This document shows, piece after piece, positions 7 to 45,818 of a DNA stretch of 64,000 nt. The position numbers and the translations under genes were made by a program. How positions within the stretch are numbered: position 1 is the stretch's first letter; each line of letters begins with the position of its first letter. The notes beneath the pieces are model-generated. The model worked only from the letters and a program-made list of their open reading frames with translations. It was not told where the DNA came from and did not search any database. Origin of the DNA: a virus (Duplodnaviria; Caudoviricetes). The stretch spans positions 224,001 through 288,000 of the IMG/VR virus record IMGVR_UViG_3300036987_000310; one strand, given 5' to 3'.

Positions 7-351
7 TTGAAGATCGCGTCGGCAAGGCTTGGCGAATGCCGTCTCAAGTCAAACGGAACGGTCACGTTCGCCGTGAGCGACAGGTACTATTGCGGCGCTG
101 TTTTTCGCGTCAGGCGCAACATCAACGCGTCTGCTAATGCCAAAGCGGATGCTAAGGCTTTCGCCAGCATCCTGGCTCAAGCTTTGGTTCAGTTCGACGA
201 CCGAGACTGGCACGCAAAGGCTCGCACCCCGCAAAAATTGCTTGACTTGCGGCAAACGGTTCCTTCATGGCTGATTGAAGACGGGCATGTCGAGCGCATG
301 TTCAACGACATGTTGGACGCGATTGAAATCGTAAATGTTATGGGAGTTTAG
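7..351 (+). CDS. hypothetical protein, probably 5'-truncated, carries C-terminal tag
   Basis: Frame is open from the window edge; ends IEIVNVMGV*. Confidence 0.6.
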   Translation: MKIASARLGECRLKSNGTVTFAVSDRYYCGAVFRVRRNINASANAKADAKAFASILAQALVQFDDRDWHAKARTPQKLLDLRQTVPSWLIEDGHVERMFNDMLDAIEIVNVMGV

Positions 352-484
352 TGGATTGGGTCTAGCAAACCACAATCTTCGTGTAAATCGAGCGAGTGAG
401 CAAGCGAGTTTAACAGGCGGGGGCCCGCCTCCAAGTCGGAGGGTCAGTCTGCCCTAGAAACGGTCCCGCATCAGCATTCAAACA

Positions 485-532
485 CGAATTTGGCGGATCG
501 TCAAGTTTAAGTCTGACGATCCGCCAAATTCG
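485..532. terminator. perfect 19-bp inverted repeat between convergent genes
   Basis: CGAATTTGGCGGATCGTCA-N10-TGACGATCCGCCAAATTCG. Confidence 0.6.
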
Positions 533-583
533 ACATCCCAGTTGGCGATTCGCTATCGCCGCTTATCCCAAATTCTTCCGTCC

Positions 584-697
584 GCCTACTGCGCAGCCGT
601 CGGGTCTTCGCTTGCGCCATCAGCCAATTCCCAGTTTCAAATGGGGAACCCCCATATAAAGCCTACTGCGCAGTTGTTGGGTCCTCGCTTGCGCCAT
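584..697. repeat. 37-bp imperfect direct repeat, two copies (584-620, 661-697)
   Basis: gcctactgcgcag..gt.gggtc.tcgcttgcgccat, 33/37 identical. Confidence 0.85.
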
Positions 698-757
698 GAC
701 TGGCCCAGACTAAAAGGTGTTTTTGCCTCACGTAGTGTCCAGCATATCATCCTCCTC

Positions 758-1141
758 TCACATTGTCATGACTTGTCGAACCTGTGCCTGCTTAAGCCAT
801 CCTATAAGAATGCAAGAAACCTTTCGAGGAGAGTCTGTGCTGTTCAATCCGAAAACGTGCACAAACGGGCCCCCGCCAGCAAGTGCTCGAAGCTCCAAGC
901 CTCTCCTGATTTTTGTTTTTGAAATCAGGAGGAGGCCGACGCTCACTCCGTTGGCTGACAGCATCCAACGACCCGTCGTCTCATTCCACCAACAGCAGTC
1001 GGGCTGGGTTTGGAACCCAGCTTTGTTTAATCGAGACAGAATGCACTGCGTCACCTCCTTGGCTAGAGTGTCCAACGCTTTGGATGTGTCTGCCAAGGGC
1101 TTTCTTGTTCTCATGTGGTTTGAACTTCTTGAATTATCCAC
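758..1141 (-). CDS. hypothetical protein with C-terminal tag
   Basis: ORF ends QAQVRQVMTM*. Confidence 0.7.
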   Translation of the reverse strand: MDNSRSSNHMRTRKPLADTSKALDTLAKEVTQCILSRLNKAGFQTQPDCCWWNETTGRWMLSANGVSVGLLLISKTKIRRGLELRALAGGGPFVHVFGLNSTDSPRKVSCILIGWLKQAQVRQVMTM

Positions 1142-1326
1142 TCTTCAAAGCCATCGTCGAACGAAACCTTTTCAATTCCTGTTGGAAGATGGCGCCGAAG
1201 AAAATCGTTCAAACAATCTGAGCACACGGGGCGAAGCTTCATGCTGTCCTTGAAACGTATGAAGCAGTCAGCGTTGTTTTCCCTGCCCCTAATCCAGCAC
1301 GTGTAGCACGTCGGGCGCGTCACCAT
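1111..1326 (-). CDS. Zn-finger microprotein with C-terminal tag
   Basis: CYTC..CSDC; ends DDGFEEWIIQEVQTT*; paralog of 3941-4159. Confidence 0.8.
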   Translation of the reverse strand: MVTRPTCYTCWIRGRENNADCFIRFKDSMKLRPVCSDCLNDFLRRHLPTGIEKVSFDDGFEEWIIQEVQTT

Positions 1327-1728: not shown

Positions 1729-1737
1729 TCCTAAATT

Positions 1738-2894: not shown

Positions 2895-3116
2895 CTAGCT
2901 TTCCATGATTTCCTTGACGTGCTCCACTTCGCGTTGGTGTTTCCATTCGTCCATGCCGTCTTCCAGCGATTGACATAGAATGTGGGACTTTCTTTGTAGA
3001 AGGCACAAGTCACAAGCCGGCACCAAAGTTCCGCTTTCCAGTCTAAGAAACACAGTGGCTTCCTGCCATGTGTGCACCCCGTTGCGAAATCCTGTCGAGC
3101 ATATTCGACACTTCAT
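2895..3116 (-). CDS. Zn-finger microprotein with C-terminal tag
   Basis: CRIC..CDLC; SLEDGMDEW; ends EHVKEIMES*. Confidence 0.8.
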   Translation of the reverse strand: MKCRICSTGFRNGVHTWQEATVFLRLESGTLVPACDLCLLQRKSHILCQSLEDGMDEWKHQREVEHVKEIMES

Positions 3117-3127: not shown

Positions 3128-3922
3128 CTATGAGTCCATGAGCTCTTTGACGCCCGCCAAGTCGAGAGCTGCTTTGAAATCGCCTTCATCAATGAAGGCG
3201 GCATCCGCTTGATTTCGGCGGCAGAAGTTCAACAGGTTGGACATTGCGTCGAAGTGGTCTCGCGCGAATTGAAAAGTCTTGAACATGTCCTCGGAGCTCA
3301 TGCCCGTCAGTTCGTTGCGGTTCTTCATCAGTTCTTTCACCAGCTTGGCCTGGAAATTCAGCCTCTGGCGTCCGCCAAGCTTGTCAATGTACCGATCGAC
3401 TTCCGCCGGAAATGCGGCAGCTTGCTTGTCCCATTCGGCGCGAACCCTTGCGTCAAGCTCGCGGAGCTCCGCGCAGTTGTTTTCCAACCATGTGCCGAGG
3501 GGTTCAGTGTTGTACTGGCTGTACCCAGTCACTTCAAACGGCTTTCCCACCAAGATGGTTGGCAAGGCAGGCTTTGAAAAATTGGGGTTGAACTCTTGCA
3601 GCGGCGTGGTTGGACTGTAGTCGTATTCAATTACGTACGGCGTCACGGCGTATTTGTGAACTGCGGCAATTATGGTCGACCCGTCGGTGATGAACACCTT
3701 CGGAAAGCCCCACAACCCGCGGCGAGTCAGCGAACTGTGGCTGCTGCCCCGGTTTGGCGGCTTCTTTGAGACGCCGATTTTCTTGACTTCGACGCGAGCT
3801 CGTTTCAAAAATGCGACGCTCAACTCCATCTTGACAACAGTTTCGTTGCAAGTCTTTTCATGCCACAACATTTGGCTGCATTCTTGTTCGGCCCACTCGT
3901 CCACTGCTTGTTTCAAATCCAT
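3128..3922 (-). CDS. hypothetical protein with C-terminal tag
   Basis: 264 aa; SD GAGGTG; ends LDLAGVKELMDS*. Confidence 0.85.
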   Translation of the reverse strand: MDLKQAVDEWAEQECSQMLWHEKTCNETVVKMELSVAFLKRARVEVKKIGVSKKPPNRGSSHSSLTRRGLWGFPKVFITDGSTIIAAVHKYAVTPYVIEYDYSPTTPLQEFNPNFSKPALPTILVGKPFEVTGYSQYNTEPLGTWLENNCAELRELDARVRAEWDKQAAAFPAEVDRYIDKLGGRQRLNFQAKLVKELMKNRNELTGMSSEDMFKTFQFARDHFDAMSNLLNFCRRNQADAAFIDEGDFKAALDLAGVKELMDS

Positions 3923-3940: not shown

Positions 3941-4159
3941 CTAAGACGACATTGTTTCCTGAACCAGCCACTCGTCCCATCCATCCTCGATGGACACTCG
4001 TTTGGCGACGTCATCAAACGAATTGTCCAGGCATTCGCGACATAGCGGCCTGAGCTTGCCATTCATGGTGCGCATGAACAAGGCTGCCTGCTTCGAGCAC
4101 GTCGAGCGCTCAGCAAACCTGACGTCCCACTCAGGAATCTTCCTGGCGCACTTCACCAT
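3941..4159 (-). CDS. Zn-finger microprotein with C-terminal tag
   Basis: RPLCREC; ends EDGWDEWLVQETMSS*. Confidence 0.8.
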   Translation of the reverse strand: MVKCARKIPEWDVRFAERSTCSKQAALFMRTMNGKLRPLCRECLDNSFDDVAKRVSIEDGWDEWLVQETMSS

Positions 4160-5186: not shown

Positions 5187-6722
5187 TTACGGACGGTCAA
5201 TGCGAAGCGGCGCAACCCTACCGAACGCGGGCTTGAACCCCGTGTTGTTGCGCGTAAGCACCCACACCACGTCCATTCCTTTGGGACGCAGCTCGTAGGG
5301 CACCGTGCCGCAGTCGCCGTCCGTCAGGACGACAATCACGTCGAAATCCGTGCCCAGGTGCTTCGGGAAGTCCCGAAAAAACTCGTCGAATACGGTCCCT
5401 CCACGTCCGACCACCTTGGTGCGCTTGAGATCTTCCACCTTTTCCACACGGTGGACCCCCGCCCAGTGGGGAGACGCATCGCAGGGGATGACGTATCCTT
5501 CGGTGTTGTTCCCCAGGACCTGCAGCTGGGAGATTCCGTAAGCCATGTCGTCGTCGCCCATGGACCCTGAGGTGTCGAGCATTGCCAGCCAACGGGGCTT
5601 GTGCATGTAGCGCCGAGGCAGGTACATCTTGGGGTTGGTGCCCAAGAACCGCCGCCTGATGCGCTTCCAATCGTTGTTCAACCCCGCGTCCTGGACCTTC
5701 TTGAGCAGGGCGCTGCGAACGATGTCGGTGAACTTCAGGGTTGGCTTCTTCAACTCGCCGAGCATGCCTTCGATTTCCGACGGCAGACTGCCTCTCATCT
5801 GAGTCGCCTGGTCAGCCGCTCGCATGAGATCTGCCTGGACTTCTTGCTGGGTCATGTCGGTGTCGATGTGAGAATCCATGCCGCCCAGTCGGTCCATGGG
5901 CGACCCACATTTTCCGCATTCATGGCCATGCTCGTGAGGATGCTGTCCGCATCCGCTGCTGGGATTCTGTCCAGGCTGGTTCCCGTCTCCTCCATCCCCG
6001 TCTTCCTCTCCAGGCTGGTCTCCAGGCTGATCCCCAGGGGACTTGCCCTTTTGACCTTGCCCCTGATTGCCCTTTTGCTTCTGGCCGTCTGCGCCCATGG
6101 ACAGGTTTCCGCACTGGGGGCACTTGCGCGGGGACTTGTTCCAGTGGTCGATGATCTCGTCGTAGATGGACTCGGGCGACCGGCCGTGCAGCGACTTGTC
6201 CGCGAAGCAGAACTCCCCTTTCGGAAGCTCCTGCTTGCCGTCGATGAACGACAGGAGGGTGGCGAAGCTCAGGGGCTCCCCGATGTTGCCGCCAAACAGC
6301 TGGCCCTTGCGGTGCGTCTTTTCGTGGTCGGTCCACAGGCACGCGTTGACCACATAGTCCACCGAGATGTTCCACACCTGATGCATCTTCCCCTTGCCTC
6401 GCTTCGGGTGGAAGAAGATGATGTGGTAACCCTCGTGCTGCATGACAGTGGCCAGCTCGTCGGGCGTGAGCTTGTTGAGGAATTCTGGGTTCCAGTAGTA
6501 GGTGCGGCCGTCGGTGGCCGCCGTGTCGATGGGCTGTCCGTGCAGTTCAGTGCACAGCTCGTGCGGCTTGGGCGCCGAGTATGCGAACAAGAATGGGTTT
6601 CCACCGTTCTCCGGCTTGCGGAAAAGCCGGGTCATGCAGGAAGAGACCTTCTCCTGCATGGAGTTGAGCTGGGCGCCGTTGGGCGCCACCTTCCTGGGGT
6701 CCGAGAGTCGTGAACCGATCAT
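5187..6722 (-). CDS. DUF2201-type metallopeptidase-like + vWA domain protein
   Basis: TAATDG and HEGYH (HExxH) in N-terminal part; LDTSGSM and LTDG (MIDAS) in C-terminal part; G/Q/P-rich linker flanked by CPQC/CGKC. Confidence 0.9.
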   Translation of the reverse strand: MIGSRLSDPRKVAPNGAQLNSMQEKVSSCMTRLFRKPENGGNPFLFAYSAPKPHELCTELHGQPIDTAATDGRTYYWNPEFLNKLTPDELATVMQHEGYHIIFFHPKRGKGKMHQVWNISVDYVVNACLWTDHEKTHRKGQLFGGNIGEPLSFATLLSFIDGKQELPKGEFCFADKSLHGRSPESIYDEIIDHWNKSPRKCPQCGNLSMGADGQKQKGNQGQGQKGKSPGDQPGDQPGEEDGDGGDGNQPGQNPSSGCGQHPHEHGHECGKCGSPMDRLGGMDSHIDTDMTQQEVQADLMRAADQATQMRGSLPSEIEGMLGELKKPTLKFTDIVRSALLKKVQDAGLNNDWKRIRRRFLGTNPKMYLPRRYMHKPRWLAMLDTSGSMGDDDMAYGISQLQVLGNNTEGYVIPCDASPHWAGVHRVEKVEDLKRTKVVGRGGTVFDEFFRDFPKHLGTDFDVIVVLTDGDCGTVPYELRPKGMDVVWVLTRNNTGFKPAFGRVAPLRIDRP

Positions 6723-6782: not shown

Positions 6783-6980
6783 TCATTCTGGCAGGGTCCA
6801 GCCTTGAACATATCCTACACGAAATCGGTGACGCAGCTCCACCAAGGAGAACACGATTTTGTCGGGTTCTCCTGAAACCATGACGTCGAGCGAATCTGGC
6901 TCGATTTTGAGACCTTGACCCTGAAGGAATTTGACAATTTTGTTACGGGCTCGTTTCGTGGTTTGAATCTGTGCCTTCAT
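6783..6980 (-). CDS. hypothetical protein
   Basis: ATG overlaps the upstream stop; MKAQIQTT.., 65 aa. Confidence 0.6.
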   Translation of the reverse strand: MKAQIQTTKRARNKIVKFLQGQGLKIEPDSLDVMVSGEPDKIVFSLVELRHRFRVGYVQGWTLPE

Positions 6981-7543
6981 GCTGTCATCACCACCTTCAC
7001 CGAGTACAGGTCCCATCCCTTTTGGATAGCTTTCGAGGTTATTTCCTTGCGCCTGAGGACCAAATCCAGCTTCTCTGCCCTCTCCTTGATGCGCCAGGAG
7101 AGCTGTTTGTACCTTTGGAGCCCGTCTTCGAGGTCCGACCGCTGCGGAATCGGCACTGTTGCTCGTGCAGAATTTGCAACCCAAGCATTCTCCTCTTCGA
7201 TGGACTCGTGCAGCCTGCACAACCGCAGGGCGATCATCTTGGCAATGACGGTTGCGGGCGTTGGCGTTTTCTTGACGATCTTCGGCACCACTTCCGAAAT
7301 TTTCTTCAAAACGGCCGCCTCGTCGCCGAAGAACACGAGATTGGACGTGACGCTTCCTCGCTGAAGCGAGCCCCAAACCATGTCTGGCGTCTGCACCCCT
7401 CCTCGAGTTTCGAGGGAACTCATGAAAGCGGACACCTTTTGGAAGTGTCCGTGGGCGCTGTGAAAAGAGAAATCCTTGATCTGCTTGAAGCAGTCTTGTT
7501 TTGCTTTCAGCGCATTGGAAATTGCCTGAGAATATTTCAGCAT
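6977..7543 (-). CDS. hypothetical protein with C-terminal tag
   Basis: Downstream of promoter and SD; ends WDLYSVKVVMTA*. Confidence 0.85.
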   Translation of the reverse strand: MLKYSQAISNALKAKQDCFKQIKDFSFHSAHGHFQKVSAFMSSLETRGGVQTPDMVWGSLQRGSVTSNLVFFGDEAAVLKKISEVVPKIVKKTPTPATVIAKMIALRLCRLHESIEEENAWVANSARATVPIPQRSDLEDGLQRYKQLSWRIKERAEKLDLVLRRKEITSKAIQKGWDLYSVKVVMTA

Positions 7544-7595: not shown

Positions 7596-7835
7596 TCATG
7601 AATTGTGCACAAACTCACACAAGCGCTCGTCGCAGGTTGGCCTTTCGCGAACGTCCGGCGCCCTCAAGTTGCACCGCGCACATCTTCTCTCGCGATAGAT
7701 GATGGTCCTTCCGCGGTCGTCGACGTCTCGAACAACTGTCATTCTCCACTGGTGTCCTTTTTTGTCCGGGGGATCAGGTTTGCTGCCATTCTCCCATTCC
7801 CAGGCTCGCTCATTGTCGACGTGTTGGAAGTTCAC
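7596..7835 (-). CDS. Zn-binding microprotein with C-terminal tag
   Basis: GTG overlaps the upstream TGA; CARC..C; ends CDERLCEFVHNS*. Confidence 0.7.
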   Translation of the reverse strand: MNFQHVDNERAWEWENGSKPDPPDKKGHQWRMTVVRDVDDRGRTIIYRERRCARCNLRAPDVRERPTCDERLCEFVHNS

Positions 7836-8095
7836 GACTCCATCACTTCTCGCATGCGGAGCTCGTCTCGAGTGACGAATCGAGCTCCTGGCGGCAAGTT
7901 TTCTGCCTTGATCCGGTGAGCGTGGCAAAGAGCTCTCCACATTTCAAGGCCGTTGTCGAGCCTCAAAATCCACTGAGACGCTTTCTTCTGGCAGCAAAAG
8001 CATTTTTTGCCTGGCAAAGTTTTGCAGCGAGGGATTTTTATATGGGAAATTTTAAATGTTCCGTTGAAAAAATCAGGTGGGAATCTTTTTGGCAT
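7832..8095 (-). CDS. Zn-finger microprotein with C-terminal tag
   Basis: TGATG coupling; CFCC..CHAH; ends RDELRMREVMES*. Confidence 0.8.
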   Translation of the reverse strand: MPKRFPPDFFNGTFKISHIKIPRCKTLPGKKCFCCQKKASQWILRLDNGLEMWRALCHAHRIKAENLPPGARFVTRDELRMREVMES

Positions 8096-8493
8096 CAGTC
8101 CCTCATTATGTCTCGGATGTTGTCCATGAGGCACTTGTTCGGGTCGTGAAAATCTCGGCGCCCGTGGCGCCTTTTGATTGCTCTGCCGCATCCGGGGCAC
8201 TGAACCGGCTTCTTTTCCGGCTTCTCTTCTTGCGGAAACATGACGAGGGGGGCCTCAGAATACGGGCGATAGCTAACTTTCCACCGTAGACGGAACACCT
8301 CTTTCAGAGAAGCATGCTTCTTTCTTTTCGGAGCGATTGCCCACCCGATGGCGGCAGCCTGCTTCAAACACTCCCAAATGTGTTCTGGCGGCTCTGCCAA
8401 GAAATCGGCCACGTCTTTTGCAGAGAATTCTTTCAAGTTCGGATCCGACAGGATCCTTTCGATTCTCGGCATGAGGTCAGGCCGTGCAGACAA
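8095..8493 (-). CDS. HTH-like + Zn-binding protein with C-terminal tag (start uncertain)
   Basis: CPGC..H..HDP..C; ends MDNIRDIMRD*; paralog of 8505-9176. Confidence 0.75.
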   Translation of the reverse strand: MSARPDLMPRIERILSDPNLKEFSAKDVADFLAEPPEHIWECLKQAAAIGWAIAPKRKKHASLKEVFRLRWKVSYRPYSEAPLVMFPQEEKPEKKPVQCPGCGRAIKRRHGRRDFHDPNKCLMDNIRDIMRD

Positions 8494-8504: not shown

Positions 8505-9176
8505 CTAGTCTTTCATGATCAGCGCGATCATGGTCATCCTGCATTGCTCGGGGTCGTGCACTTCGGCTCTTGCGTGCCGACGAGCTGGACAGTTGCACCA
8601 CGGACAACGCCCGTTGCCGCGAGCGGGGCGAGGTGCCCGGCTCGCGGGCTTCCAAACGAAATGACGACGATCGACCAGACGATACAAGACGCCGCTTGCT
8701 GCCGCAAGATCTTGAGGAACCGTGACGAATGGCACGGCGCCAGACCAGGTAATGACCCCGCTTTCTCTCAACTGCTCCAAATATTTTTCGACATCATGGA
8801 TGCCAGCAAAGTCAGCAGCGCTTGCGACCCCGACCTTTTCGAAAACCCGCCGCATTTTGAGAACGATTGACGGGTCGAGCTTTTCTCGCTTCTTTGGCTT
8901 TGGCGGCACAGCGGGAGGCGGAGCTGCAAAGCTGTTTTCATGCCTCACTGCGCCGCCACGAAGGGCCAAAGCGTCCAAACAATCTTGGACGTCTTCCACG
9001 TGTTCGCGAAGTTCTTTGGCGAGGACCGCGGGAGACGTCGTGCGAGCCCAGTCCAAAGCCTGGAGCTTCTTGCCGACTTGAATCAACAAGTCTGGGCGCG
9101 CTTTTCGGACTGGCGGAGGGTCGCCCTTTGCGGGCTTGGGCTTAGGGTCCTTTCGCCGGTCTCGGTTCTTTGCCAT
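8505..9176 (-). CDS. wHTH-like + Zn-binding protein with C-terminal tag
   Basis: CPWC..H..HDP..C; ends MTMIALIMKD*. Confidence 0.8.
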   Translation of the reverse strand: MAKNRDRRKDPKPKPAKGDPPPVRKARPDLLIQVGKKLQALDWARTTSPAVLAKELREHVEDVQDCLDALALRGGAVRHENSFAAPPPAVPPKPKKREKLDPSIVLKMRRVFEKVGVASAADFAGIHDVEKYLEQLRESGVITWSGAVPFVTVPQDLAAASGVLYRLVDRRHFVWKPASRAPRPARGNGRCPWCNCPARRHARAEVHDPEQCRMTMIALIMKD

Positions 9177-9200: not shown

Positions 9201-9716
9201 TTATTCTTCGTGCACCAATTTGAGCAAACAACTGCGCGTGCGGCATTCGTTCAGCGGTTTCCCGAAAGCTCTATGCTTCGGGTCTGTGCACCGTTTCACT
9301 GGCCATGAGCGAACACGAAGAGCCACGTCCTGTGCTTGGGAAAGTAGCGCGGTCGCAAGTTTTGGATCCTTGGCAGCGCGAAGCATCGTTTCTTTGTCCG
9401 TTAGAACGTTGTAAAAGTTCACCGGGTCTTTGGCTTTTTCCATCAGATTGCAGATCGTGCGGAAAACCACGCTGTCTGTTTGATTCCTGACCCCGACAGC
9501 CAGAAACATGCGCTTCTGCATGTTTCTGACCATATCTCTTTCCAAGTTTTCGGCCTGTTTTCGTCGACACTCAGCCCAGTAATTTCGTTTGACGCCAGCC
9601 TCTCCATATTCTTCTAGCGCCTTTTTTCCTTCCCACAAACGTCGAAGTTTCAGTTCATGGTCTTCGACACCGAAATGACGCCGAGTCAAAGCGCGAAATC
9701 TTTTGAAGGACATCAT
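9201..9716 (-). CDS. hypothetical protein with C-terminal tag
   Basis: Ends RSCLLKLVHEE*. Confidence 0.8.
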   Translation of the reverse strand: MMSFKRFRALTRRHFGVEDHELKLRRLWEGKKALEEYGEAGVKRNYWAECRRKQAENLERDMVRNMQKRMFLAVGVRNQTDSVVFRTICNLMEKAKDPVNFYNVLTDKETMLRAAKDPKLATALLSQAQDVALRVRSWPVKRCTDPKHRAFGKPLNECRTRSCLLKLVHEE

Positions 9717-9720
9717 GGCG

Positions 9721-10026
9721 TCACCTAGACATTACTTCGTACACGGTGAAATCTCCAGGAGCGAGACCATCGAGATGAAAAATCACCACCTGGCGAAAGT
9801 TTTTCGTCAACGTGTCAAAAAACACGGGGGCACAGTCGCTGCACACGAGCTTTACCTTCCCGGCGTGCGGGCTTCCTGGCTTGAAGCGCGCGAAATCTGC
9901 TTCGTTCAGATCGTACAAAACAGCCACAGCAATGCTGTGCCCGTTTGAAGACGGAAGCGCAGTCGAGTTTAAGCCGCAAGCGATCACGGCCTGGGCTAGA
10001 GCCTCGTCGAACTGGCACTGGTTCAT
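9721..10026 (-). CDS. hypothetical protein with C-terminal tag
   Basis: ATGA overlap with upstream gene; ends GDFTVYEVMSR*. Confidence 0.75.
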   Translation of the reverse strand: MNQCQFDEALAQAVIACGLNSTALPSSNGHSIAVAVLYDLNEADFARFKPGSPHAGKVKLVCSDCAPVFFDTLTKNFRQVVIFHLDGLAPGDFTVYEVMSR

Positions 10027-10235
10027 TCGGTCGCCCACGATTCGGTCGCTATGGTCAGGTTTGACCAAACAGTTGTCCGGACTGTGTAGCCTCTCGTCTC
10101 AAGATCCGCCACGTTGACGCTTCCATCTTTGTGGTCGATGATCAGCCTCACAAGCTTTCCGGACGAAATCTCTTTGAACACGCCGGACAGGCCGCGTTCG
10201 TGCACTTCCGCCACAATCGCGTCGTTTTCGTTCAT
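10023..10235 (-). CDS. hypothetical protein
   Basis: SD GAGGAG; downstream of a promoter copy. Confidence 0.7.
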   Translation of the reverse strand: MNENDAIVAEVHERGLSGVFKEISSGKLVRLIIDHKDGSVNVADLETRGYTVRTTVWSNLTIATESWATE

Positions 10236-10510: not shown

Positions 10511-11617
10511 TCAGTCGTTCAAGCTTTTTCTGATTTTCACGTATGTGGCCATCAGCTCCGGGACGCGGGTGAGCTTCCAGTCCTGGATGATCTTCATGCT
10601 CAGGACGGACTTCACGGCACCGATGGCGAACTCCGGAGGAATCTCTCCCAACCATCCGAAGACATTCTTGGTGACCTTGAGAATCCTCTCCTCCTGCTTC
10701 GCCTTCTCTGCGCCGGACTTCTGGTCTCGGCCGAGCTGGGAGATGATGTTGCAGCCCGCGATGGCGCAGACCATGATGCGGTCCACGGTCATGTTCTCGA
10801 TGTTGGGCTTCTTGCCGTCCTTGACCAGAGCATCGATGATGGGCTCGATGTGCCGGTAGTGGTCGAGCCACACCCTGAACTTGATTGCGGCAGCCTGGCC
10901 CACGCGGCCTGCCACGAGCATGGTCTGGAAGTCGACCGTCTCCTTCATCACCAGGTCCAGGTCCCTGGCCGCCATGGTCCAGGCGCGAGGGGACGGGTGG
11001 CAGTAAGCCGTGTCGTCGCCCTCGGGAGGCGGCATGAGCAGGTATTCCTGGTTCTTGCTCAAGAAGCCGACGATGAGGCCGTTCACGCCCTCTTCTGCGG
11101 CCCAGATCTGCCACGGCTCGAAGCTCGACTCCACCTTGTACACCATGCACCTGTTGGTCAGGGCGTGGGAGACGGGGAGCGAGAAGGCGCCTTCCTCGGG
11201 CAGGTTGCCCGTCGAGATGATGCTGTGAATGTCCAGCGGACGCCCGTTGATCGTCCTGAACTGGAACAGTTCCAGCATCGGGTTCTGCAGCTCGGGCTTG
11301 GCCTTGTCGATCTCGTCCACCACGAGAACGACGCCCTTGTCGCGCGTGCCCTTGATCGGGAGGAACTTGGGCGTGGCGTACTCGGAGAGCTTGGTCTCCG
11401 GGTCGATCATCGGCAGGCCGTTGAGGTCGGGGGCCTCGAGAACGGAGAGGTTGAGGTAGACGGCCTCGCGGCCCTTCTCCTTGGCCGCCTGGAAGGCCAT
11501 TTCAGTCTTGCCCGTACCGGCCGCGCCGAAAATCATGATGTTGCCGCCGGAGTCGATGCTGAAGCGGTAGAGGGTCTTGAGCGTTGCCTGATCTACGTTG
11601 TGGATTCCCGTGAGCAT
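10511..11617 (-). CDS. MoxR/dynein-related AAA+ ATPase
   Basis: Walker A GAAGTGKT, Walker B LVVDE, STGN, ALTNR (Arg finger), PSPRAW. Confidence 0.9.
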   Translation of the reverse strand: MLTGIHNVDQATLKTLYRFSIDSGGNIMIFGAAGTGKTEMAFQAAKEKGREAVYLNLSVLEAPDLNGLPMIDPETKLSEYATPKFLPIKGTRDKGVVLVVDEIDKAKPELQNPMLELFQFRTINGRPLDIHSIISTGNLPEEGAFSLPVSHALTNRCMVYKVESSFEPWQIWAAEEGVNGLIVGFLSKNQEYLLMPPPEGDDTAYCHPSPRAWTMAARDLDLVMKETVDFQTMLVAGRVGQAAAIKFRVWLDHYRHIEPIIDALVKDGKKPNIENMTVDRIMVCAIAGCNIISQLGRDQKSGAEKAKQEERILKVTKNVFGWLGEIPPEFAIGAVKSVLSMKIIQDWKLTRVPELMATYVKIRKSLND

Positions 11618-12697: not shown

Positions 12698-13447
12698 ATG
12701 CCCAAGCCGAGAACAACGAACCCCAAAATTGAGTTTGTCCACTCGGAGCGAGCAAGAAACGCTGTTCTGGCCCGCGTGGGCGCTCTAAACGCCCAAGGCA
12801 ACGACCGGGACGTATCCAACGTTGTTTACGCGCTGCGCGACAGAGCGCGAGTGTCCGCCCGTTACGTGTGCTGGAATAAGGTGGACTCAAAGCGAGTGTC
12901 CACCCACTACGTTCTTTGGAGCGATGGGTCCCCAAAAAAGGACGACTGCCTTCCAAAGAGCGTTGTCAACGGAGTGAAGAAGGACTTTCCAGGAGAAACT
13001 GGTTTCTCCTGCGTCTTGTTCAGACACGTTTGGGCAGCCCAAGCGGAACCCAGCAGCGGATTTCTGCTGGCTTTCCCTGGGAGCGAAGACGACCTCCTTC
13101 TCGAGATCGAGCAAACGTGGATGGAAGAAGACATGGAGCAAGAGCTAGCCCCGCTCTTGCGCGAAGAATTCAAGCATGAGGTGCACCAGTTTTTGGCGTC
13201 GAGAGCCCTGTACTCGATTCGAGGTGGAATGCATCAGGCTCGCGAGAAGATGATCGAATTTGCTCACGGCTACACCCTAGCCTGGAACAAGTTCGGTGGC
13301 GAAAAAGTTCACCCGCGTCCATACGTGATTTCGCCGCGATACGGAAAAGGATCGCAAGGGGTTGCCTATATGCTCACGATTCCCCCGAAACAGCTTCTTG
13401 AAGAAGCGCAAGACGAGTTCGCTTACCAAATTGTGATGGAATCGTGA
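12698..13447 (+). CDS. hypothetical protein with C-terminal tag
   Basis: SD GAGGTGA; ends QDEFAYQIVMES*. Confidence 0.85.
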   Translation: MPKPRTTNPKIEFVHSERARNAVLARVGALNAQGNDRDVSNVVYALRDRARVSARYVCWNKVDSKRVSTHYVLWSDGSPKKDDCLPKSVVNGVKKDFPGETGFSCVLFRHVWAAQAEPSSGFLLAFPGSEDDLLLEIEQTWMEEDMEQELAPLLREEFKHEVHQFLASRALYSIRGGMHQAREKMIEFAHGYTLAWNKFGGEKVHPRPYVISPRYGKGSQGVAYMLTIPPKQLLEEAQDEFAYQIVMES

Positions 13448-13507: not shown

Positions 13508-14128
13508 ATGGGACAATCGAGCTACGAGAAAATTTACGAGGCGCTGGCTGCCACGAAGCAGTGCAAAGCGCTCGTGGCAGCCATCCCGGAGAAGTTCGCA
13601 CAAGTTCGCGTGACGGGCGTGGAATTCACTCTCAAGCGCCCGAACGAGTTCGGACAACCCGCGGAAGCCATTCCCCACTACAAAGTAGTCGGTCCGAACG
13701 GGTACGTGTTGAACACGCAAGACGGCCATGTTTGGCTATCGGTTTCGATACTCGTGAATGATGAAGTCCTCGCCCCGTTGGTGAACGAGGTGTTCGGCGT
13801 CAAGGGCGGCGTGCCCACGTACTTCTGCAACAAGGAAGTCGTTCTCGGCAAGAAGAACCGCCGGGACACCGACTCGTTTGGCGACTGGTTGTGCAGGCGG
13901 GTTCGCTCCCAGTTCGAACAGGACATTTTGAGCGCCCAAAAGCGCGTTCAAGAGCAAGTTCGGCAGATGGCGGCAAGCGAGGAAACTGCTCAGCTCGGGC
14001 GAGAGTTCCTCGTCCGATGCGCCGTCGACGACATCAAGAAGGCCTTGGGCGCCTATGACCACCTCGGCAAGGAAGTTTTGTCCGAGGCCATTGACGAGTT
14101 TCTCGTCCACAGCATCACGGACAGTTGA
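13508..14128 (+). CDS. hypothetical protein, tag variant
   Basis: SD GGAGGTGA; ends IDEFLVHSITDS*. Confidence 0.85.
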   Translation: MGQSSYEKIYEALAATKQCKALVAAIPEKFAQVRVTGVEFTLKRPNEFGQPAEAIPHYKVVGPNGYVLNTQDGHVWLSVSILVNDEVLAPLVNEVFGVKGGVPTYFCNKEVVLGKKNRRDTDSFGDWLCRRVRSQFEQDILSAQKRVQEQVRQMAASEETAQLGREFLVRCAVDDIKKALGAYDHLGKEVLSEAIDEFLVHSITDS

Positions 14129-17124: not shown

Positions 17125-17126
17125 AG

Positions 17127-26861: not shown

Positions 26862-26871
26862 AGTGTTCGCG

Positions 26872-31665: not shown

Positions 31666-31899
31666 ATGAAGTACGTCGTCATCGTGGGCCATCCTTTGAT
31701 GCAAAGGGACCCCTGCATGTTCACGGACATTCAGGGCGTGGTTGGCTGCCAGTCTCTGGAGCAGGTTCAGGAGGCGATAAATGCCAACCGCGTCCACCGA
31801 AATGGAGACTGGACTGTGTTCGAGCTGGTCGACGGCAAGTTCCAACAGCGGAGCGTCTGCTTCGAGCCTGACGGCAGAACTGTCAAGAATGTCCAATGA
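31666..31899 (+). CDS. small hypothetical protein
   Basis: SD GGGAG. Confidence 0.65.
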   Translation: MKYVVIVGHPLMQRDPCMFTDIQGVVGCQSLEQVQEAINANRVHRNGDWTVFELVDGKFQQRSVCFEPDGRTVKNVQ

Positions 31900-32128
31900 C
31901 AACCCGATGCAGTGCGACGGAGTGGACTTTGGCGGAAACTGGAAACGATGCAAAAACAACCCGGTCGAGTACTGGGTGCGAGTTGAACCCAGCTTCCACT
32001 GGGTCAAGCGCATTAGCTTGTGCGCAGAGTGCGCCCGCTTTTACTGGATCCAAACCGTCTATTCCAAGCATTCGTTCAAGCAAGCAACCTTGCAGGAGTG
32101 GGTTTGCCACTGCGTGCAGGAAGAATAG
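31889..32128 (+). CDS. Zn-finger microprotein with C-terminal tag
   Basis: C..C..LCAEC; ends TLQEWVCHCVQEE*. Confidence 0.75.
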   Translation: MSNDNPMQCDGVDFGGNWKRCKNNPVEYWVRVEPSFHWVKRISLCAECARFYWIQTVYSKHSFKQATLQEWVCHCVQEE

Positions 32129-33991: not shown

Positions 33992-34168
33992 GTGAAAACG
34001 TACCGAGTCAAAATCATGGACGAGAGCGGTTGCCCAGCCGCCATCGAAGTGCGGGTCGGAGACGCGGACAGCCAGCGCGAGGCAGAGCTTCGAGTCAAGG
34101 AGCTGATTGTGCCTGGCGTCGAAGTGGTGTCCGTCGAATTGGGCGAATCGGACGAAACCGAGCCATGA
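33992..34168 (+). CDS. small acidic protein
   Basis: SD AAGGAGG, GTG start. Confidence 0.6.
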   Translation: MKTYRVKIMDESGCPAAIEVRVGDADSQREAELRVKELIVPGVEVVSVELGESDETEP

Positions 34169-34344
34169 CCTGCTTCTGGTGCCTTTGCAGAGCCGTGCAG
34201 CTTTGGCTCCCAAACAGTCCGTCCGATGGTCCGCTCTGGATCTGCGGCAACCATTCGGAAGACTTCGTCAGAGTGTTGGCGGAGTCAGGGTTCAGGCAGG
34301 CAACGCCTGAAGAGTTCGACATGGGCGTAGTTCATCAGACGTAG
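34165..34344 (+). CDS. Zn-finger microprotein with C-terminal tag
   Basis: CFWCLC..ICGNH; ends TPEEFDMGVVHQT*. Confidence 0.75.
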   Translation: MTCFWCLCRAVQLWLPNSPSDGPLWICGNHSEDFVRVLAESGFRQATPEEFDMGVVHQT

Positions 34345-35970: not shown

Positions 35971-36156
35971 GTACCCCTTCTTGGGAGGGGAACCGGATGC
36001 ATGCCTGAAAATGGGTCCTCGCGAAACGATCTGGGTCCGCTCAGTTTTTGCGCAAACAGTTCTTTTCGTCCGATTAAACACTGACCGATTGTTCAGTATT
36101 TCGATTGTTCAGTGTTCCAAGGAACAAACGGCATTCATCGCCAGAAGCAAAACGCC

Positions 36157-36378
36157 ATGAGAAGGACCGATGGCAAGATTGTTTGCGACCTGAACAGTTG
36201 CACGGCCCTGGCTGTTGTGGCGATGGTTGGAAAGCCCAACTCCGGGGATTTGGGGCCGGAGTGGGTGTCGTTCAGGTGCGCCGAGCATTCGGGGCCGTCG
36301 TGGGATCGGCATGTCGACAAGATCCCGGTGCAAGAGTGGGAAAAGCTTCAAGGCTTGAGGGAAGTGCACGAGTCGTGA
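36157..36378 (+). CDS. Zn-finger microprotein with C-terminal tag
   Basis: CDLNSC..RCAEH; ends EKLQGLREVHES*. Confidence 0.75.
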   Translation: MRRTDGKIVCDLNSCTALAVVAMVGKPNSGDLGPEWVSFRCAEHSGPSWDRHVDKIPVQEWEKLQGLREVHES

Positions 36379-36779: not shown

Positions 36780-37256
36780 TCACTCTCTCATGGTCTCGGC
36801 CACGCAAACCAGGTCTGAAATTCTCGCAGCCAACTCGGCGTTTTTCATTTTCGACAAAATCCTTTTGGAGGACGGGCGATAAAGAAACTCCTTTTTCGGG
36901 TCCTCCAGCCCGCCATGGCTTGTCACCATGGCCACAGCTGCTTCCAGAGTCCACGAGTTTGTTTGGAGGTGCCAGCCGCGGCGCCGCTCAAACACCCGAA
37001 AGTCGCCAGCTTGCCCAGCTGCGTCCGCTATCCCGGCCATTTCCGCAGCTAGCGCCTCCCGCATCCCCTCGTTCGCTTCCTCAAACGGCCCGTCCTTTTT
37101 CCAGTTTGCAAGCTTTGCTTCAAACTTTCGAATCGTCAGAAAAGCTAGGCTTTTCTTCGGCCAGTGCTGCAGCTCGCCGCGCGGCCCGATCGCCCACGCT
37201 TCGCCGTTCAAAACTGGAAGCGCGCTCCCTAGGTTTTCCCAAATTGTTTTCAGCAT
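36780..37256 (-). CDS. hypothetical protein with C-terminal tag
   Basis: Ends ISDLVCVAETMRE*. Confidence 0.7.
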   Translation of the reverse strand: MLKTIWENLGSALPVLNGEAWAIGPRGELQHWPKKSLAFLTIRKFEAKLANWKKDGPFEEANEGMREALAAEMAGIADAAGQAGDFRVFERRRGWHLQTNSWTLEAAVAMVTSHGGLEDPKKEFLYRPSSKRILSKMKNAELAARISDLVCVAETMRE

Positions 37257-37273
37257 TGAGTGTAGGCTCGAGC

Positions 37274-37465
37274 ATGAGCGAAGTTTTGGACAAATGCCCC
37301 AATTGCCAATCCTACAATGTGCAGACAAAGGTCGTTCACAATCCCGACACTTGCGACATGAACGCCGAGGCAACTCTTGCTTGCTTGGATTGCAAGCAAG
37401 AGTGGGAGGGCAAAGTCATGTCTCCTCGAATGGAGGAAGATCGTCGGCGAGGGTTTGCGATTTAG
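37274..37465 (+). CDS. small Zn-ribbon protein
   Basis: CPNC..CLDC. Confidence 0.65.
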   Translation: MSEVLDKCPNCQSYNVQTKVVHNPDTCDMNAEATLACLDCKQEWEGKVMSPRMEEDRRRGFAI

Positions 37466-38449: not shown

Positions 38450-38464
38450 TTGCGTCTTCGCGAC

Positions 38465-38680
38465 ATGAAAATCGAGAAAGTCGTGACAGCCACAAAGACG
38501 CCCCACGATTGGGAGCGCGACGGGTTTCATTGGCGCTGCAGAGCTTGCGGGGCGATTGCTGCGGAATTTGGCGACAACGGGTTTCCGGACCCTTACGGAT
38601 CGGTCGTCTATGCCAAGGGCATGGACTGCGTGGAGGCTTCTTGCGACGAGATGTCGGTTCTCAAAGTGATGAGGAGCTAG
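38465..38680 (+). CDS. Zn-binding microprotein with C-terminal tag
   Basis: HDW..CRAC..C; ends SCDEMSVLKVMRS*; resembles 7596-7835. Confidence 0.75.
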   Translation: MKIEKVVTATKTPHDWERDGFHWRCRACGAIAAEFGDNGFPDPYGSVVYAKGMDCVEASCDEMSVLKVMRS

Positions 38681-43429: not shown

Positions 43430-44685
43430 GGAATACGCAAATGTTGGAACTAAAAAACTACAAGCTCTTTTTTCAGTTTTCGGAAGTTCATCCGAGCGCT
43501 AGACTCGAAGTGATCTTTCACCGAACGCTTCGCATTCCGGACGACGAAAAAACTTACCCGCTCCCCCCGAGCTTAGGAACTTTTCCGATTGCCCATGTCG
43601 ACGACTACAAAGACAAGGTTCCGGAAAAATGGATAAAGCACGGCGGGGTAATGCTCCCCATGTGGCAATCTGAAGCAGTGTGGCTTCAGTTCGTGTCGTG
43701 TCATGTTCCCGGTCATTCGCATGTGTGGCCTTTTGCCATCAAGGTTTCCACTGGGAAAAGGTCTGCAGTCACCGGGAAAGCATGGTCAAAGACTCTTCGA
43801 GAAGGAGACTACCTGGTCATCCCGGAACAGAAATGGCTTGACGGGTATGTAGTGGAAGACGGCGTAATCAGGCAGTTTATCGCTGCTCCGCTTGGGATGG
43901 GCGCCACGGCAGAGGAGCAGATCACTGGGAAGGCTGAACACGGTGGTCTGCAGATCGAAGTATACCCCATGTCCGCTGTCGAATATATGAAAAGATGGCC
44001 TCAGCTCCCTGTTACACGTCAACGCAGGTCCATACTCCGAAGTTATGACAACGGCGAGGAAAAAACGCTTGGCGGAGTCGAGCTTTTTGACTTTGACTAT
44101 GAAAGAGAAGCCGATGATGACACGACGCCAATCGCGTGTGCTGGGTCTAGCGCGTATCTAACCGGATCCGTAAACGTTTCCAACATTTCCGAGATTTCCG
44201 AGAGTTGGTCGTCGACGTCAGTCAACACGGTCAACGCATCGTGGAACGGAGCTCGCGGCATAACGACGAAGAACTGCTCACTCACGCCGCAGTCTGCAAC
44301 AATTCGTCCCGACATGGGTCTTGCTCCTGGTGGCCGGATGGCGCAACAGGTGTTTTCTGACACCTATGGCATGGAAGTTTGGGACACAAGTCACCACGAT
44401 AGGTGCTTCGTTCACTTGTCAAACTCTTTAGCATGGAAGGCCATCACAGGGAAAGATGCGCCGACCATTCCGCTGTCTGCGGCAGACTATAGTCGACATG
44501 GAATGCCCTGGTTCAGTCACTATTGTGATGCCCCAACCGTGAAGCCTTCCAAAAAGATTGCCGGACTAAAGAGCGCCATACAGATCGGTGAAGAAAAAGG
44601 CGTCCCTATTGTTTTGGAGAATGAGTCGGCACAGCCGAAAACTGTTGTGCACACGACAGAAGTGCGCGATGGAAAGTGGGGTTGA
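43423..44685 (+). CDS. conserved hypothetical protein
   Basis: FHRTLRIPDD..YPLPPSLG.FP, EAVWLQF, QKWLDG, QFIAAPLG; ends EVRDGKWG*. Confidence 0.85.
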   Translation: MVRNTQMLELKNYKLFFQFSEVHPSARLEVIFHRTLRIPDDEKTYPLPPSLGTFPIAHVDDYKDKVPEKWIKHGGVMLPMWQSEAVWLQFVSCHVPGHSHVWPFAIKVSTGKRSAVTGKAWSKTLREGDYLVIPEQKWLDGYVVEDGVIRQFIAAPLGMGATAEEQITGKAEHGGLQIEVYPMSAVEYMKRWPQLPVTRQRRSILRSYDNGEEKTLGGVELFDFDYEREADDDTTPIACAGSSAYLTGSVNVSNISEISESWSSTSVNTVNASWNGARGITTKNCSLTPQSATIRPDMGLAPGGRMAQQVFSDTYGMEVWDTSHHDRCFVHLSNSLAWKAITGKDAPTIPLSAADYSRHGMPWFSHYCDAPTVKPSKKIAGLKSAIQIGEEKGVPIVLENESAQPKTVVHTTEVRDGKWG

Positions 44686-44686
44686 T

Positions 44687-44932
44687 ATGTCTTGCAGGAT
44701 CACGTGCTGTTCGAATCACTGCTACCATGTAAACACAGACCCGATTCACATGGTAGTTCCATACGGCCATTTGATATACAAATGCTGCAAGTGCGGACAC
44801 ATTATGGTAACTGCTCCATACCACCCGGTCCAAACGTGGGCTTGGAGCCCGACTGTCATGCCGGGGCCCGTCACAGTTTGCACGACATGGTCATTCAATC
44901 GCGATCAAGTTAGGGGTGGAAGGTGGACTTGA
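44687..44932 (+). CDS. Cys/His-rich small protein
   Basis: CCSNHCYH..CCKCGH; ends QVRGGRWT*. Confidence 0.6.
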   Translation: MSCRITCCSNHCYHVNTDPIHMVVPYGHLIYKCCKCGHIMVTAPYHPVQTWAWSPTVMPGPVTVCTTWSFNRDQVRGGRWT

Positions 44933-44960
44933 CTTCGGGCTTTGATGCATGTGAAAACGT

Positions 44961-45263
44961 ATGACTCCTGCGCAAGCATCAGCTCTCCTTCGAAATATTG
45001 CCGAGAAAATCGACAATTCAACCCTTCCGTCTATTTCCCTGGTTGCTGCTACATTGCAAAATGTCGTTGTAGCCCTCGAGGGAGACTCGTTTAGCAGCCC
45101 CCCTGGAGGAGCTTTGGACGATAGGCAGCAGAAGGAGATAGAGCGAAGGAAACAAAAGGAGAGCGAAAATATTTTGAAGAAAACGCAGGAAGACCTCGGG
45201 AAAAATGTCGAGCGTCTTGTTGAAGATGGGTTTAAAAATCTTGAGAAACAAATTGGCAGCTAG
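44961..45263 (+). CDS. hypothetical protein with amphipathic N-terminal leader
   Basis: LLRNIAEKI..LVAATL; coiled-coil tail. Confidence 0.7.
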   Translation: MTPAQASALLRNIAEKIDNSTLPSISLVAATLQNVVVALEGDSFSSPPGGALDDRQQKEIERRKQKESENILKKTQEDLGKNVERLVEDGFKNLEKQIGS

Positions 45264-45320
45264 TCCCATACCGTTTGTCCACAGAACGTAAATACGCTTA
45301 CTTTTTAAGTAAACTGGCAT

Positions 45321-45818
45321 GTGTTTAAGTTTCTAGCCAGTCATGTGAAGGTAAAGCGTGTCAGAGTCTCTCTTCTTCTGAAAAACAGAAGTCTCAGATC
45401 GTCAGACATTCTTGACAATCTCCGACCGAGCGTAACGCTCGAGTTTCCAGGCGGAAAGTGCAAGACGATAGTCATGAACGACTGGCGAAAGTCTCCGTCT
45501 GACGTGTACACTAAACTTGAAAGGATAGTTAGACACTTTTCTGGAGATAAGCCTGAGGCATGCTACGAAGCTTCCAAAAGGATATGGAAGCGCGTCAAAA
45601 CAGCAGTGCGCGCCGAATCCAGAAAAAAGTCCGTAAAGAAAAGATTTGACACAGCACACAGAAGAGAAATTCGTCGGTATGTTTTGTCAGACATAGAAAA
45701 TAGTCTAAAGGCCCTATCTAAAAAATCGATAGCAAAACACATTCGGCCGAAAGATTTGGCTGAAGTATGGAAGCGCCTTCAGGGAGAAAACATGGTGGAA
45801 AAGATCATGAACGGATGA
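45321..45818 (+). CDS. basic hypothetical protein with C-terminal tag
   Basis: Ends QGENMVEKIMNG*. Confidence 0.7.
   Translation: MFKFLASHVKVKRVRVSLLLKNRSLRSSDILDNLRPSVTLEFPGGKCKTIVMNDWRKSPSDVYTKLERIVRHFSGDKPEACYEASKRIWKRVKTAVRAESRKKSVKKRFDTAHRREIRRYVLSDIENSLKALSKKSIAKHIRPKDLAEVWKRLQGENMVEKIMNG

Follow-up and report, generated by a model that had tools for sequence, protein, structure and literature searches.

A 64,000-nucleotide stretch of virus DNA (Duplodnaviria; Caudoviricetes), here called the window, comprises bases 224,001-288,000 of the IMG/VR record IMGVR_UViG_3300036987_000310, which is 376,674 bp long in full and is designated G000. Many small proteins encoded in the window and elsewhere in this genome end in one and the same short peptide, which can be written as phi(-7)-x-x-[V/I](-4)-[M/H/Q](-3)-x-x-COOH, usually with E/D ahead of it at -10 and -11. 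This C-terminal tag is a genuine short linear motif acting at the protein level, and about a quarter of the G000 proteins, nearly all of them small and otherwise unrelated, carry it. The tag may be an address or docking label at the free C-terminus that is read by one conserved partner, a reading which we regard as a serious possibility, somewhat short of probable.

The C-terminal motif and its carriers

G000 belongs to an uncultivated huge phage, has direct terminal repeats and is complete according to its completeness estimate; its GC content is 51%, and it contains many tRNA genes and a gene for a 295-amino-acid (aa) HK97-type major head protein. A simple codon-usage call over the whole of G000 gave 455 genes, and a wider set of 3,402 open reading frames (ORFs) of at least 40 aa was used for profile scoring. 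The pattern [VITL][MHQ]xx-stop ends 97 of the 455 genes, where 8.9 are expected from the internal frequency of the dipeptide [VITL][MHQ] (0.0196). This frequency agrees with the chance rate of about 2% per protein estimated in an earlier reading of the window made without database searches (the sequence-only reading). At any offset other than -4 the dipeptide occurs in 4-11 genes each, save for a secondary echo of 29 at -7. A scan with a last-residue profile, proposed in the same reading, was run on G000 with the 12 C-terminal residues and a pass mark of a score of at least 8; it picks out the ends of 124 of the 3,402 ORFs, against 1.3 expected from internal positions.

Within the window 37 ORFs pass the profile, namely 34 from the earlier list and three new members (2833-3006(-), 17438-17605(+) and 26863-27135(+)). 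All 37 C-termini that had been quoted as sharing the ending or coming near it were found at the ends of the ORFs concerned. The scale of about 35 proteins proved too low: the shared ending is real, and the tag is used on about 124 proteins genome-wide and throughout a clade. One of the two proposed near-variants, ITDS (14128), belongs to the set (score 8.3, kept in relatives) and the other, MLLS (30191), drops out with a score of -2.1. The two loose matches reported right of 46 kb, LHSR of the DHH protein (score 2.2) and IQQG (54416; 0.5), are non-members. The tagged ORFs of the window are listed below in window coordinates, with the profile score in brackets.

1..351 (+), begins before the window, ends ..IVNVMGV (8.7)
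758..1141 (-), ends ..VRQVMTM (10.9)
1111..1326 (-), ends ..EEWIIQEVQTT (14.3)
2833-3006 (-), new, passes the profile
2895..3116 (-), 73 aa, ends ..HVKEIMES (18.6); partner in the complex prediction described below
3128..3922 (-), 264 aa, ends ..GVKELMDS; without Pfam family
3941..4159 (-), ends ..DEWLVQETMSS (21.8)
6977..7543 (-), ends ..SVKVVMTA, passes
7596..7940 (-), ends ..LCEFVHNS (17.8)
7832..8200 (-), ends ..RMREVMES (22.3); orthologue in locus L001
8095..8655 (-), weak, ends ..IRDIMRD (4.8); L001 orthologue ends alike
8505..9176 (-), ends ..IALIMKD, passes
9201..9716 (-), ends ..LLKLVHEE, passes
9721..10068 (-), ends ..TVYEVMSR, passes
12698..13447 (+), ends ..AYQIVMES, passes
13508..14128 (+), near-variant with T at -3, ends ..LVHSITDS (8.3); ITDC/ITES in relatives
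14148..15026 (+), ends ..YVNLVQDG, passes
15088..15813 (+), ends ..WIEGVHES, passes
16310..16687 (+), 125 aa, ends ..TVKKVMGA; V-M invariant in 19 orthologues; modelled
16684..17124 (+), ends ..VAELVMGS, passes
17082..17441 (+), ends ..DNWTVKKVQDG, passes
17438..17605 (+), new, ends ..FIASVQGE (11.1); orthologue in L001
18813..19739 (+), 308 aa, ends ..LLDEVHES; tag in 5 of 13 orthologues; modelled
20102..20518 (+), ends ..AVKKIQEA, passes
20602..20799 (+), ends ..DEWLVAKTQAT, passes
21450..21971 (+), ends ..QVADVHSR, passes
22048..22437 (+), ends ..NEWLVSQVQEM, passes
26863..27135 (+), new, ends ..LEVGETMER (12.6)
28237..28620 (+), ends ..LAFKVQES, passes
28617..28823 (+), ends ..VIFQIQRD, passes
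28949..29359 (+), ends ..LVHSTMDE, passes
29356..29676 (+), ends ..AIDDIMES, passes
30551..31003 (+), ends ..DEWTVSAVQEE, passes
31781..32128 (+), ends ..VCHCVQEE, passes
34030..34344 (+), weak, ends ..DMGVVHQT (6.2)
36112..36378 (+), ends ..GLREVHES, passes
36780..37373 (-), ends ..VCVAETMRE, passes
38450..38680 (+), ends ..SVLKVMRS (19.0)
45321..45818 (+), ends ..MVEKIMNG (17.0)

The information content of the aligned ends is highest at -3, -4 and -7. Position -7 is V/I/L in 79 of the 97 tagged genes, in line with the earlier remark that it is usually hydrophobic. Enrichment of E/D at -10 and -11 and of W/L/F/A at -9 supports the acidic helix that had been noticed ahead of the tag, and the end itself is polar (E/D/N/S at -2, S/A/E/G at -1). 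The tagged proteins are soluble and of ordinary isoelectric point (pI), with a median length of 127 aa and the largest at about 315-375 aa; in pI, Cys and Trp content they equal the untagged small proteins, and transmembrane-like segments are scarce (3% of tagged versus 7% of untagged small proteins).

Constraint at the protein level

All synonymous codons are used at every motif position, which bears out the earlier statement that the codons differ freely and the constraint lies in the protein. Tagged genes do not differ from untagged ones in stop-codon usage or in the distance to the next gene on the same strand; for 27 of the 97 there is no such neighbour closer than 200 nt; and the tag is equally frequent with and without a coupled downstream gene. 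Since codon diversity is accompanied by stop usage and neighbour distances like those of untagged genes, conservation arising from a downstream Shine-Dalgarno sequence or gene overlap, a possibility raised in the sequence-only reading, fails as an explanation.

The bodies of the proteins are unrelated. In a BLASTP comparison within the genome 81 of the 97 tagged proteins have no paralogue, and 79 tagged bodies, compared after removal of the tags, fall into 71 clusters. Only 10 Pfam and 8 PHROG families match any of the 96 tagged proteins that were scanned, some of them singly or weakly, so that the early impression of proteins mostly lacking other similarity is upheld. The sole family with several members is a group of four ankyrin-repeat paralogues; the further Pfam matches include a chance DHH match and a RecB-like nuclease, and the PHROGs scan of the 96 proteins added nothing functional.

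The shared ending could be explained away by hidden paralogy, by the Shine-Dalgarno sequence or start overlap of the next gene, or by spurious ORFs. It is true that 'TCA TGA' endings overlapping an ATG add somewhat to the S at -1 and that a few small paralogue groups exist (the four ankyrin-repeat proteins and several pairs). Against this stand the diverse codons at every position, the independence of tag frequency from coupling, the 81 singletons, the retention of the tag in orthologues from other genomes and the control loci without matches; the tests run here refute the artefact.

Three of the ankyrin-repeat members (genome 208420-209913(-), 219540-220226(-) and 221146-221619(-)) end in ..VQKVM(S/N/G)(A/T), and this family comprises the only tagged proteins with a recognisable protein-binding domain.

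Conservation and predicted shape of the tag

The relative G001, a second complete genome from IMG/VR (362,524 bp, 57% GC), also uses the tag. Homologues of 32 of the 124 tagged proteins are encoded there, and 26-28 of these 32 retain the tag; lineage turnover of the tagged genes is as high as that of untagged small accessory genes. In 25 orthologue pairs of G000 and G001, with a mean identity of 44%, position -4 is always V/I, -3 is always M/H/Q with the three residues freely interchanging, and -7 is always hydrophobic; positions -1, -2, -5, -6 and -8 are identical in only 6-10 pairs. All 19 orthologues of the 125-aa protein (window 16310..16687) keep V-M followed by exactly two variable residues. 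In the family of the 308-aa protein (window 18813..19739) 5 of 13 orthologues are tagged, and the others stop a few residues earlier. The tag is maintained by selection, which is focused on -7, -4 and -3. The tagged set is made up of about 124 small, soluble, fast-turning-over accessory proteins to which the motif has been appended.

Pro and Gly drop from 10-13% to 0-5% across positions -10 to -3, and the hydrophobic periodicity of the region (80-120 degrees) is that of a helix and not of a strand. In AlphaFold2 (AF2) models of the two families the last helix terminates in the tag, where the confidence (predicted local distance difference test, pLDDT) declines: the last helix of the 125-aa protein spans residues 92-124, and the final five residues of the 308-aa protein have a pLDDT below 50. 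On these models the tag looks like the exposed end of a C-terminal amphipathic helix. A Foldseek search of the modelled 125-aa protein against PDB returned no match with E <0.001.

Distribution and lineage-specific variants

In G001 78 ORFs are profile-positive, and at syntenic loci on three related metagenome contigs the tag is found on 13-18 of 41-43 genes. Further loci were fetched via homologues of a protein encoded at 5187..6722 of the window, the DUF2201 protein described in the next section. Contigs of 436 kb, 303 kb (an NCBI assembly) and 310 kb (36% GC) carry 20, 13 and 21 tags, respectively, at this locus, and two IMG/VR records carry 19 and 7. Overall, the other tag-bearing contigs measure 193-436 kb, with 36-57% GC and 7-21 tags per 21-kb locus. 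At 78 control IMG/VR loci (about 7,000 ORFs), in which DUF2201 is at most 35% identical or is cut by the contig end, the profile has zero matches. DNA nearly identical to that of G000 is present in groundwater, coal, soil, wetland and wastewater metagenomes. The tag is the mark of a whole clade of 300-436-kb phages with 36-57% GC from groundwater, coal, soil, wetland and wastewater. A blastn search for cultured relatives of G000 gave zero matches, and in tblastn the MoxR protein of the same locus reached at most 28% identity in cultured phages (N4-like phages and phage G); together these results mean that the collection holds no cultured member of the clade. No RNA sequencing runs containing the G000 phage were found.

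Other lineages end their small proteins differently. At locus L053, where DUF2201 is 49% identical, the tag reads [VI]-[LM]-[ED]-[ST]-stop. In G004 and G005 (458,729 bp, complete) it reads (D/E)-E-[WFL]-I-I-[KR/F]-[ED/QN]-I-I-[E/N/D]-stop, for example E-W-I-I-K-E-I-I-E-stop, and ends 45 of 221 and 69 of 745 genes, respectively; compared position by position with the G000 tag, it is one residue shorter and has I in place of M/H/Q. The tags of G003 (K-[LY]-L-L-L-x or L-L-[IVM]) and G002 (L-[RK]-W-x, on 16 proteins whose bodies are all BLAST singletons) are unrelated to that of G000, and locus L077 uses [LV]-I-F-[TS]. When 1-30 C-terminal residues were removed as a control, matches to the variant tags fell to about 0.03-0.5 on average.

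Base composition fails to account for the switch of tag, since M/H/Q is retained in the relative with 36% GC. Orthologues with swapped tags were not detectable between G000 and G002-G005, the bodies being too diverged. A concerted, genome-wide change of the key residue and the register on unrelated proteins fits co-evolution with one reader, and the lineage-wide variants, as read from the sequences, point to a single co-evolving reader; this is our main argument that a reader exists.

By locus, the variants were recorded as ..[KR][DE]II[EKT] and EEWII..II[NED] at L156-L178 (G005) and L149-L155 (G004), KLL[VI]L[KA] and LL[IVM] at L142-L148 (G003), L[RK]W[SAV] at L136-L141 (G002) and [LV]IF[TS] at L077. 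The arrays of small genes with variant tags often adjoin the AAA+/DUF2201 pair.

Candidate readers of the tag

The sequence-only reading had proposed a label at the free C-terminus with one receptor. The strict register, the selection at -7, -4 and -3, the unrelated bodies and the lineage variants fit such a label. The preferred candidate, put forward tentatively and doubtful in itself, is a pair of untagged proteins encoded in the window:

10511..11617 (-), MoxR-like AAA+ ATPase (AAA_5), heading a run of seven tagged genes that ends at the DUF2201 gene
5187..6722 (-), zincin-like metallopeptidase (DUF2201_N) with a vWA domain (DUF2201); HEGYH at residue 96, metal-ion-dependent adhesion site (MIDAS) DTSGS at residue 383

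The two genes bracket seven consecutive tagged genes on the minus strand. Between G000 and G001 MoxR is 81.5% and DUF2201 71-79% identical (genome median, 59%), which ranks both near the top in conservation, while the synonymous sites of the pair have diverged, and both the HExxH motif and the full MIDAS motif of DUF2201 are intact. Compared with random small genes, tagged genes lie nearer to DUF2201 in G000 (P=0.0015), in G001 (P=0.006) and in G006, G002 and G003 (each P<0.0005). This clustering spans three tag lineages, the tags of G002 and G003 being different from that of G000, and an AAA+ gene precedes DUF2201 in every lineage checked.

One conserved partner would recognise the tag together with the free carboxyl end, and the phage could thereby handle its variable accessory proteins as one class. 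If the partner is the MoxR/DUF2201 pair, the acidic C-terminal helix would be captured at the vWA MIDAS site and in the peptidase groove next to it, the MoxR ATPase would remodel or release the client, and the DUF2201 peptidase might clip the tag. The fate of the tagged proteins could be maturation, timed removal or delivery. Extended to the whole supergroup, MoxR and the metallopeptidase-vWA protein would read, and perhaps clip, a tail that is specific to each lineage, co-evolves and is borne by up to a quarter of the proteins, which is offered as an equally tentative proposal.

Several observations weigh against this assignment or against the label itself. In G004 and G005 the tagged genes are not nearer to DUF2201 than random small genes (P=0.97 and 0.76), and G000, G001 and G006 are not mutually independent in the clustering statistics. 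The clustering could also merely reflect a shared region of accessory genes. Most of 80 IMG/VR loci with the MoxR/DUF2201 pair show no shared C-terminus, albeit in a crude test, and N4-like and many other phages possess the pair; being far more widespread than any tag, it must have some tag-independent role. Since 8 of the 13 orthologues of the 308-aa family have lost the tag, at least some proteins can perform their basic function without it. A complex prediction with DUF2201, the capsid protein and the 73-aa tagged protein scored 0.13 against a mark of 0.34, which counts neither way. Searches of PDB sequences with DUF2201 and MoxR gave no useful match.

The readers examined were the phage-encoded proteins of G000 and G001. 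The ThiF/E1 ubiquitin-like set was rejected as a reader, being absent from the tag-using G001, and the R2K ATP-grasp enzyme and a 628-aa vWA protein were rejected on the same ground. PDZ_2, ClpP, TPR_12 and Lon_C were not detected in either genome. A papain-like C1 peptidase and a DnaJ protein, 46-51% conserved between the two genomes, seem less attractive. They stay on the list of candidate readers along with the head proteins, an actin-like protein and many conserved proteins of no assigned role.

Alternative explanations

Four uses of the label had been suggested from the sequence: capsid loading, import into a phage compartment, a degron, and docking on a hub. None of them is singled out by the present results. 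Import into a phage nucleus looks unlikely, because the replication and transcription enzymes are untagged, as had been stated of the recognisable enzymes, and because the phage has a sigma-like factor and no sign of a multisubunit RNA polymerase of its own. Loading into the capsid is also rather unlikely. The tag would dock effectors on the inner face of the HK97-fold shell, on the core or on the portal, and they would be co-injected with the DNA into the next host. A short C-terminal tag on small soluble proteins would suit such a route, many tagged proteins, including those with ankyrin repeats, resemble fast-evolving accessory or anti-host factors, and the tag, with acidic residues around -10, a hydrophobic one at -3/-4 and small polar residues at the end, recalls Dot/Icm signals in its composition. 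At 295 aa the major capsid protein is of encapsulin size, and no other protein of the genome is as conserved (95.6% identity, the synonymous sites having diverged). However, the protein with a head-maturation-protease domain and two genes flanking the capsid gene lack the tag, about 124 species of cargo would be unprecedented, and the tagged genes are grouped in blocks of accessory genes that in many cases run on the other strand from the structural modules. A comparably low probability is assigned to a C-degron, by which timed or constitutive proteolysis by a host AAA+ protease or a phage peptidase (C1 or the DUF2201 zincin) would limit the lifetime of the proteins. C-degrons typically stand, like the tag, in a fixed register relative to the free carboxylate. 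Any protein would benefit in the same general way, whatever its function, in keeping with a tag that is readily acquired and lost. The phage has a C1 cysteine peptidase whose catalytic residues are present, and a zincin domain, and V/I followed by M/H/Q-x-x-COOH could, in our view, be read as P2-P1 of a peptidyl-dipeptidase. Yet ClpP, Lon and PDZ_2 are undetectable in both complete genomes, the end is polar where ClpXP and Tsp recognise non-polar ends, conservation of the C1 peptidase between G000 and G001 is only 46%, and the -10, -7, -4, -3 spacing with Pro/Gly depletion indicates a helix, whereas protease active sites need an extended strand.

The tag could instead recruit the effectors to one host machine, such as RNA polymerase, the sliding clamp or DnaK reached through the phage DnaJ, which we consider improbable. 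Acidic-hydrophobic C-terminal helices are common ligands of hubs (acidic tails of T7 and T4, clamp-binding tails, EEVD), EEVD motifs having TPR or class-B J-proteins as partners, and a DnaJ that includes a DnaJ_C domain is among the phage proteins. But one tag occurs across phages of 36-57% GC, probably infecting different hosts, which argues for a phage-encoded reader; TPR_12 was not detected in the two genomes, DnaJ is only 51% conserved, and the motif is unlike the clamp or DnaK consensus. It is just as improbable that the tag has no reader and is an intrinsic structural or self-association element (a helix cap or an oligomerisation helix) gained repeatedly by new small proteins, even if it lies within the terminal helix in both AF2 models and its roughly three constrained residues could easily arise. 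A common requirement for the same three residues, precisely spaced from the stop, would not be expected of unrelated folds, the fall of pLDDT at the tag suggests that it is not packed, and the concerted lineage-wide switch of the -3 residue and the register is hard to explain without a common partner.

Comparison with known systems

In the bacterial vWA-MoxR conflict systems, vWA domains have been proposed to capture peptides for MoxR ATPases, and the systems are linked to a zincin-like metallopeptidase and to small proteins that diverge rapidly but conserve a C-terminal peptide, e.g. FxSxx-COOH; the small proteins described include FxSxx-COOH, RxD and acidic types (Kaur, Burroughs, Iyer and Aravind 2020, PMC7159879, citing Haft and Basu 2011). 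G000 likewise has small diverging proteins with a C-terminal peptide in fixed register beside MoxR, vWA and a zincin-like peptidase. The bacterial systems, in contrast, are of the defence type with one or few precursors, whereas the G000 phage tags about 124 proteins of up to about 315 aa; in G000 the peptidase and vWA are fused, the motif differs, and cleavage of the tag is hypothetical. Of the further components of such systems, the radical SAM/SPASM maturase of the FxSxx type has no counterpart in G000, where Radical_SAM was not found, and the third components VMAP, iSTAND and FtsH did not turn up in general Pfam scans, no search having been aimed at them.

A short C-terminal peptide suffices to address encapsulin cargo and the HK97 maturation protease to an HK97-fold shell. 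The G000 tag resembles these cargo-loading peptides and the protease tail as a short extreme C-terminal peptide on unrelated proteins. It differs from them in sequence, in the far larger number of tagged species and in that the prohead protease and scaffold candidates of G000 are untagged. The Dot/Icm (type IVB) effectors of Legionella and Coxiella number in the hundreds, evolve fast, are mostly orphans, often contain ankyrin repeats and carry a loose C-terminal signal, in which Glu residues are concentrated around -10 to -17, -3/-4 is hydrophobic and the last residues are small and polar. The G000 tag is much sharper and in strict register, and the delivery machine, if any, would be the virion; we know of no type IV coupling protein in the G000 phage.

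The acidic tails of T7 gp2.5 and gp4, the clamp-binding tails of T4, C-degrons and the TPR-read PTS1 (PEX5) and EEVD signals are all short motifs read with the free carboxylate by a single partner. Unlike the T7 and T4 tails, which are found on a handful of linked proteins, and unlike host-wide sorting by TPR, PDZ or Clp, the G000 tag is missing from the recognisable enzymes. It had been said to resemble neither ssrA nor PDZ ligands, and both distinctions are sustained: its S/A/E/G at -1 and E/D/N/S at -2 are not non-polar as in LAA, and its polar end, helical periodicity and Pro/Gly depletion differ from the hydrophobic beta-strand end of a PDZ ligand. A published description of such a tag was not found in the searchable literature.

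Other features of the genome

ARAGORN called a suppressor tRNA with anticodon TTA (reading TAA) at L022:8447-8537 (+), genome about 336.1 kb, although G000 otherwise gives clean translations under code 11. A second shared module, a peptide of about 42 residues (P..L...LR.IA.KID.S..PS..LV) that is N-terminal in most cases, occurs on nine otherwise different untagged proteins, and five copies are found in G001. The copies in G000 are located at:

genome 120635-120973, 126844-127269, 152440-152811, 172632-173204 and 173206-173520
genome 182746-183864, 195539-196060 and 339743-340243
window 44961-45263

Three small fragment paralogues of the major head protein (capsid gene, genome 328566-329453(+)) are encoded at genome 125965-126375(-), 313692-313937(+) and 190784-191401(-); they are 33-40% identical to capsid residues 115-163 or 166-237, and two of the three are tagged. 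Judged by these alignments, they could be decoys or assembly modulators.

From the promoter search of G000 only the Shine-Dalgarno sequence GGAGGTGA and a local CGCGTAT element emerged, and neither gave a temporal class for the genes. The conserved element, ..GGAGCTGCGCGAGCTCGC-CGCGTAT.., occupies 13 intergenic sites at genome 217-254 kb and one at 324 kb. Its distance to the start codon downstream is mostly 11-29 nt and at most 88 nt, and it usually comes just before the GGAGGTGA ribosome-binding site. It precedes, among others, the genes at window 3941-4159, 6977-7543, 10511-11617, 16310-16687 and 21450-21971, heading tagged and untagged genes alike, and may be a local promoter or operator. 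Further genes of the phage are:

genome 141418-142584 (-), EF-Tu
genome 82103-83011 (-), DnaJ with C-terminal domain
genome 373839-374846 (+), actin-like 'Volactin' homologue
genome 306550-307326 (+), sigma-70 region-4 protein
genome 155568-156374 (-), papain-family C1 peptidase
genome 113279-113701 (-), NADAR domain protein
genome 148468-149415 (-), ADP-ribosylglycohydrolase
genome 123407-124843 (-), RtcB
genome 111029-111550 (-), ThiF-type E1 of the ubiquitin-like gene set, with neighbours at about 111-113.3 kb; no match in G001

Significance

Nearly all tagged genes are 'hypothetical proteins' without homologues. The tag offers a sequence handle for picking the accessory or anti-host arsenal of these phages from metagenomes with essentially no false positives (0 in about 7,000 control ORFs), and a portable peptide for tests of sorting, stability and packaging. 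Its lineage-specific variants amount to a natural co-evolution experiment that could be used for finding the reader. The tag also suggests a possible function for the MoxR/vWA-peptidase pair, which is common yet unexplained in phages. If one partner reads the tail, about a quarter of the genes in a widespread environmental group of huge phages would be handled as one class. Were MoxR/DUF2201 to be that partner, the phage would have a common switch (maturation, release or removal) over a fast-evolving accessory arsenal, and the bacterial vWA-MoxR peptide-processing conflict systems would have in it a counterpart among viruses.

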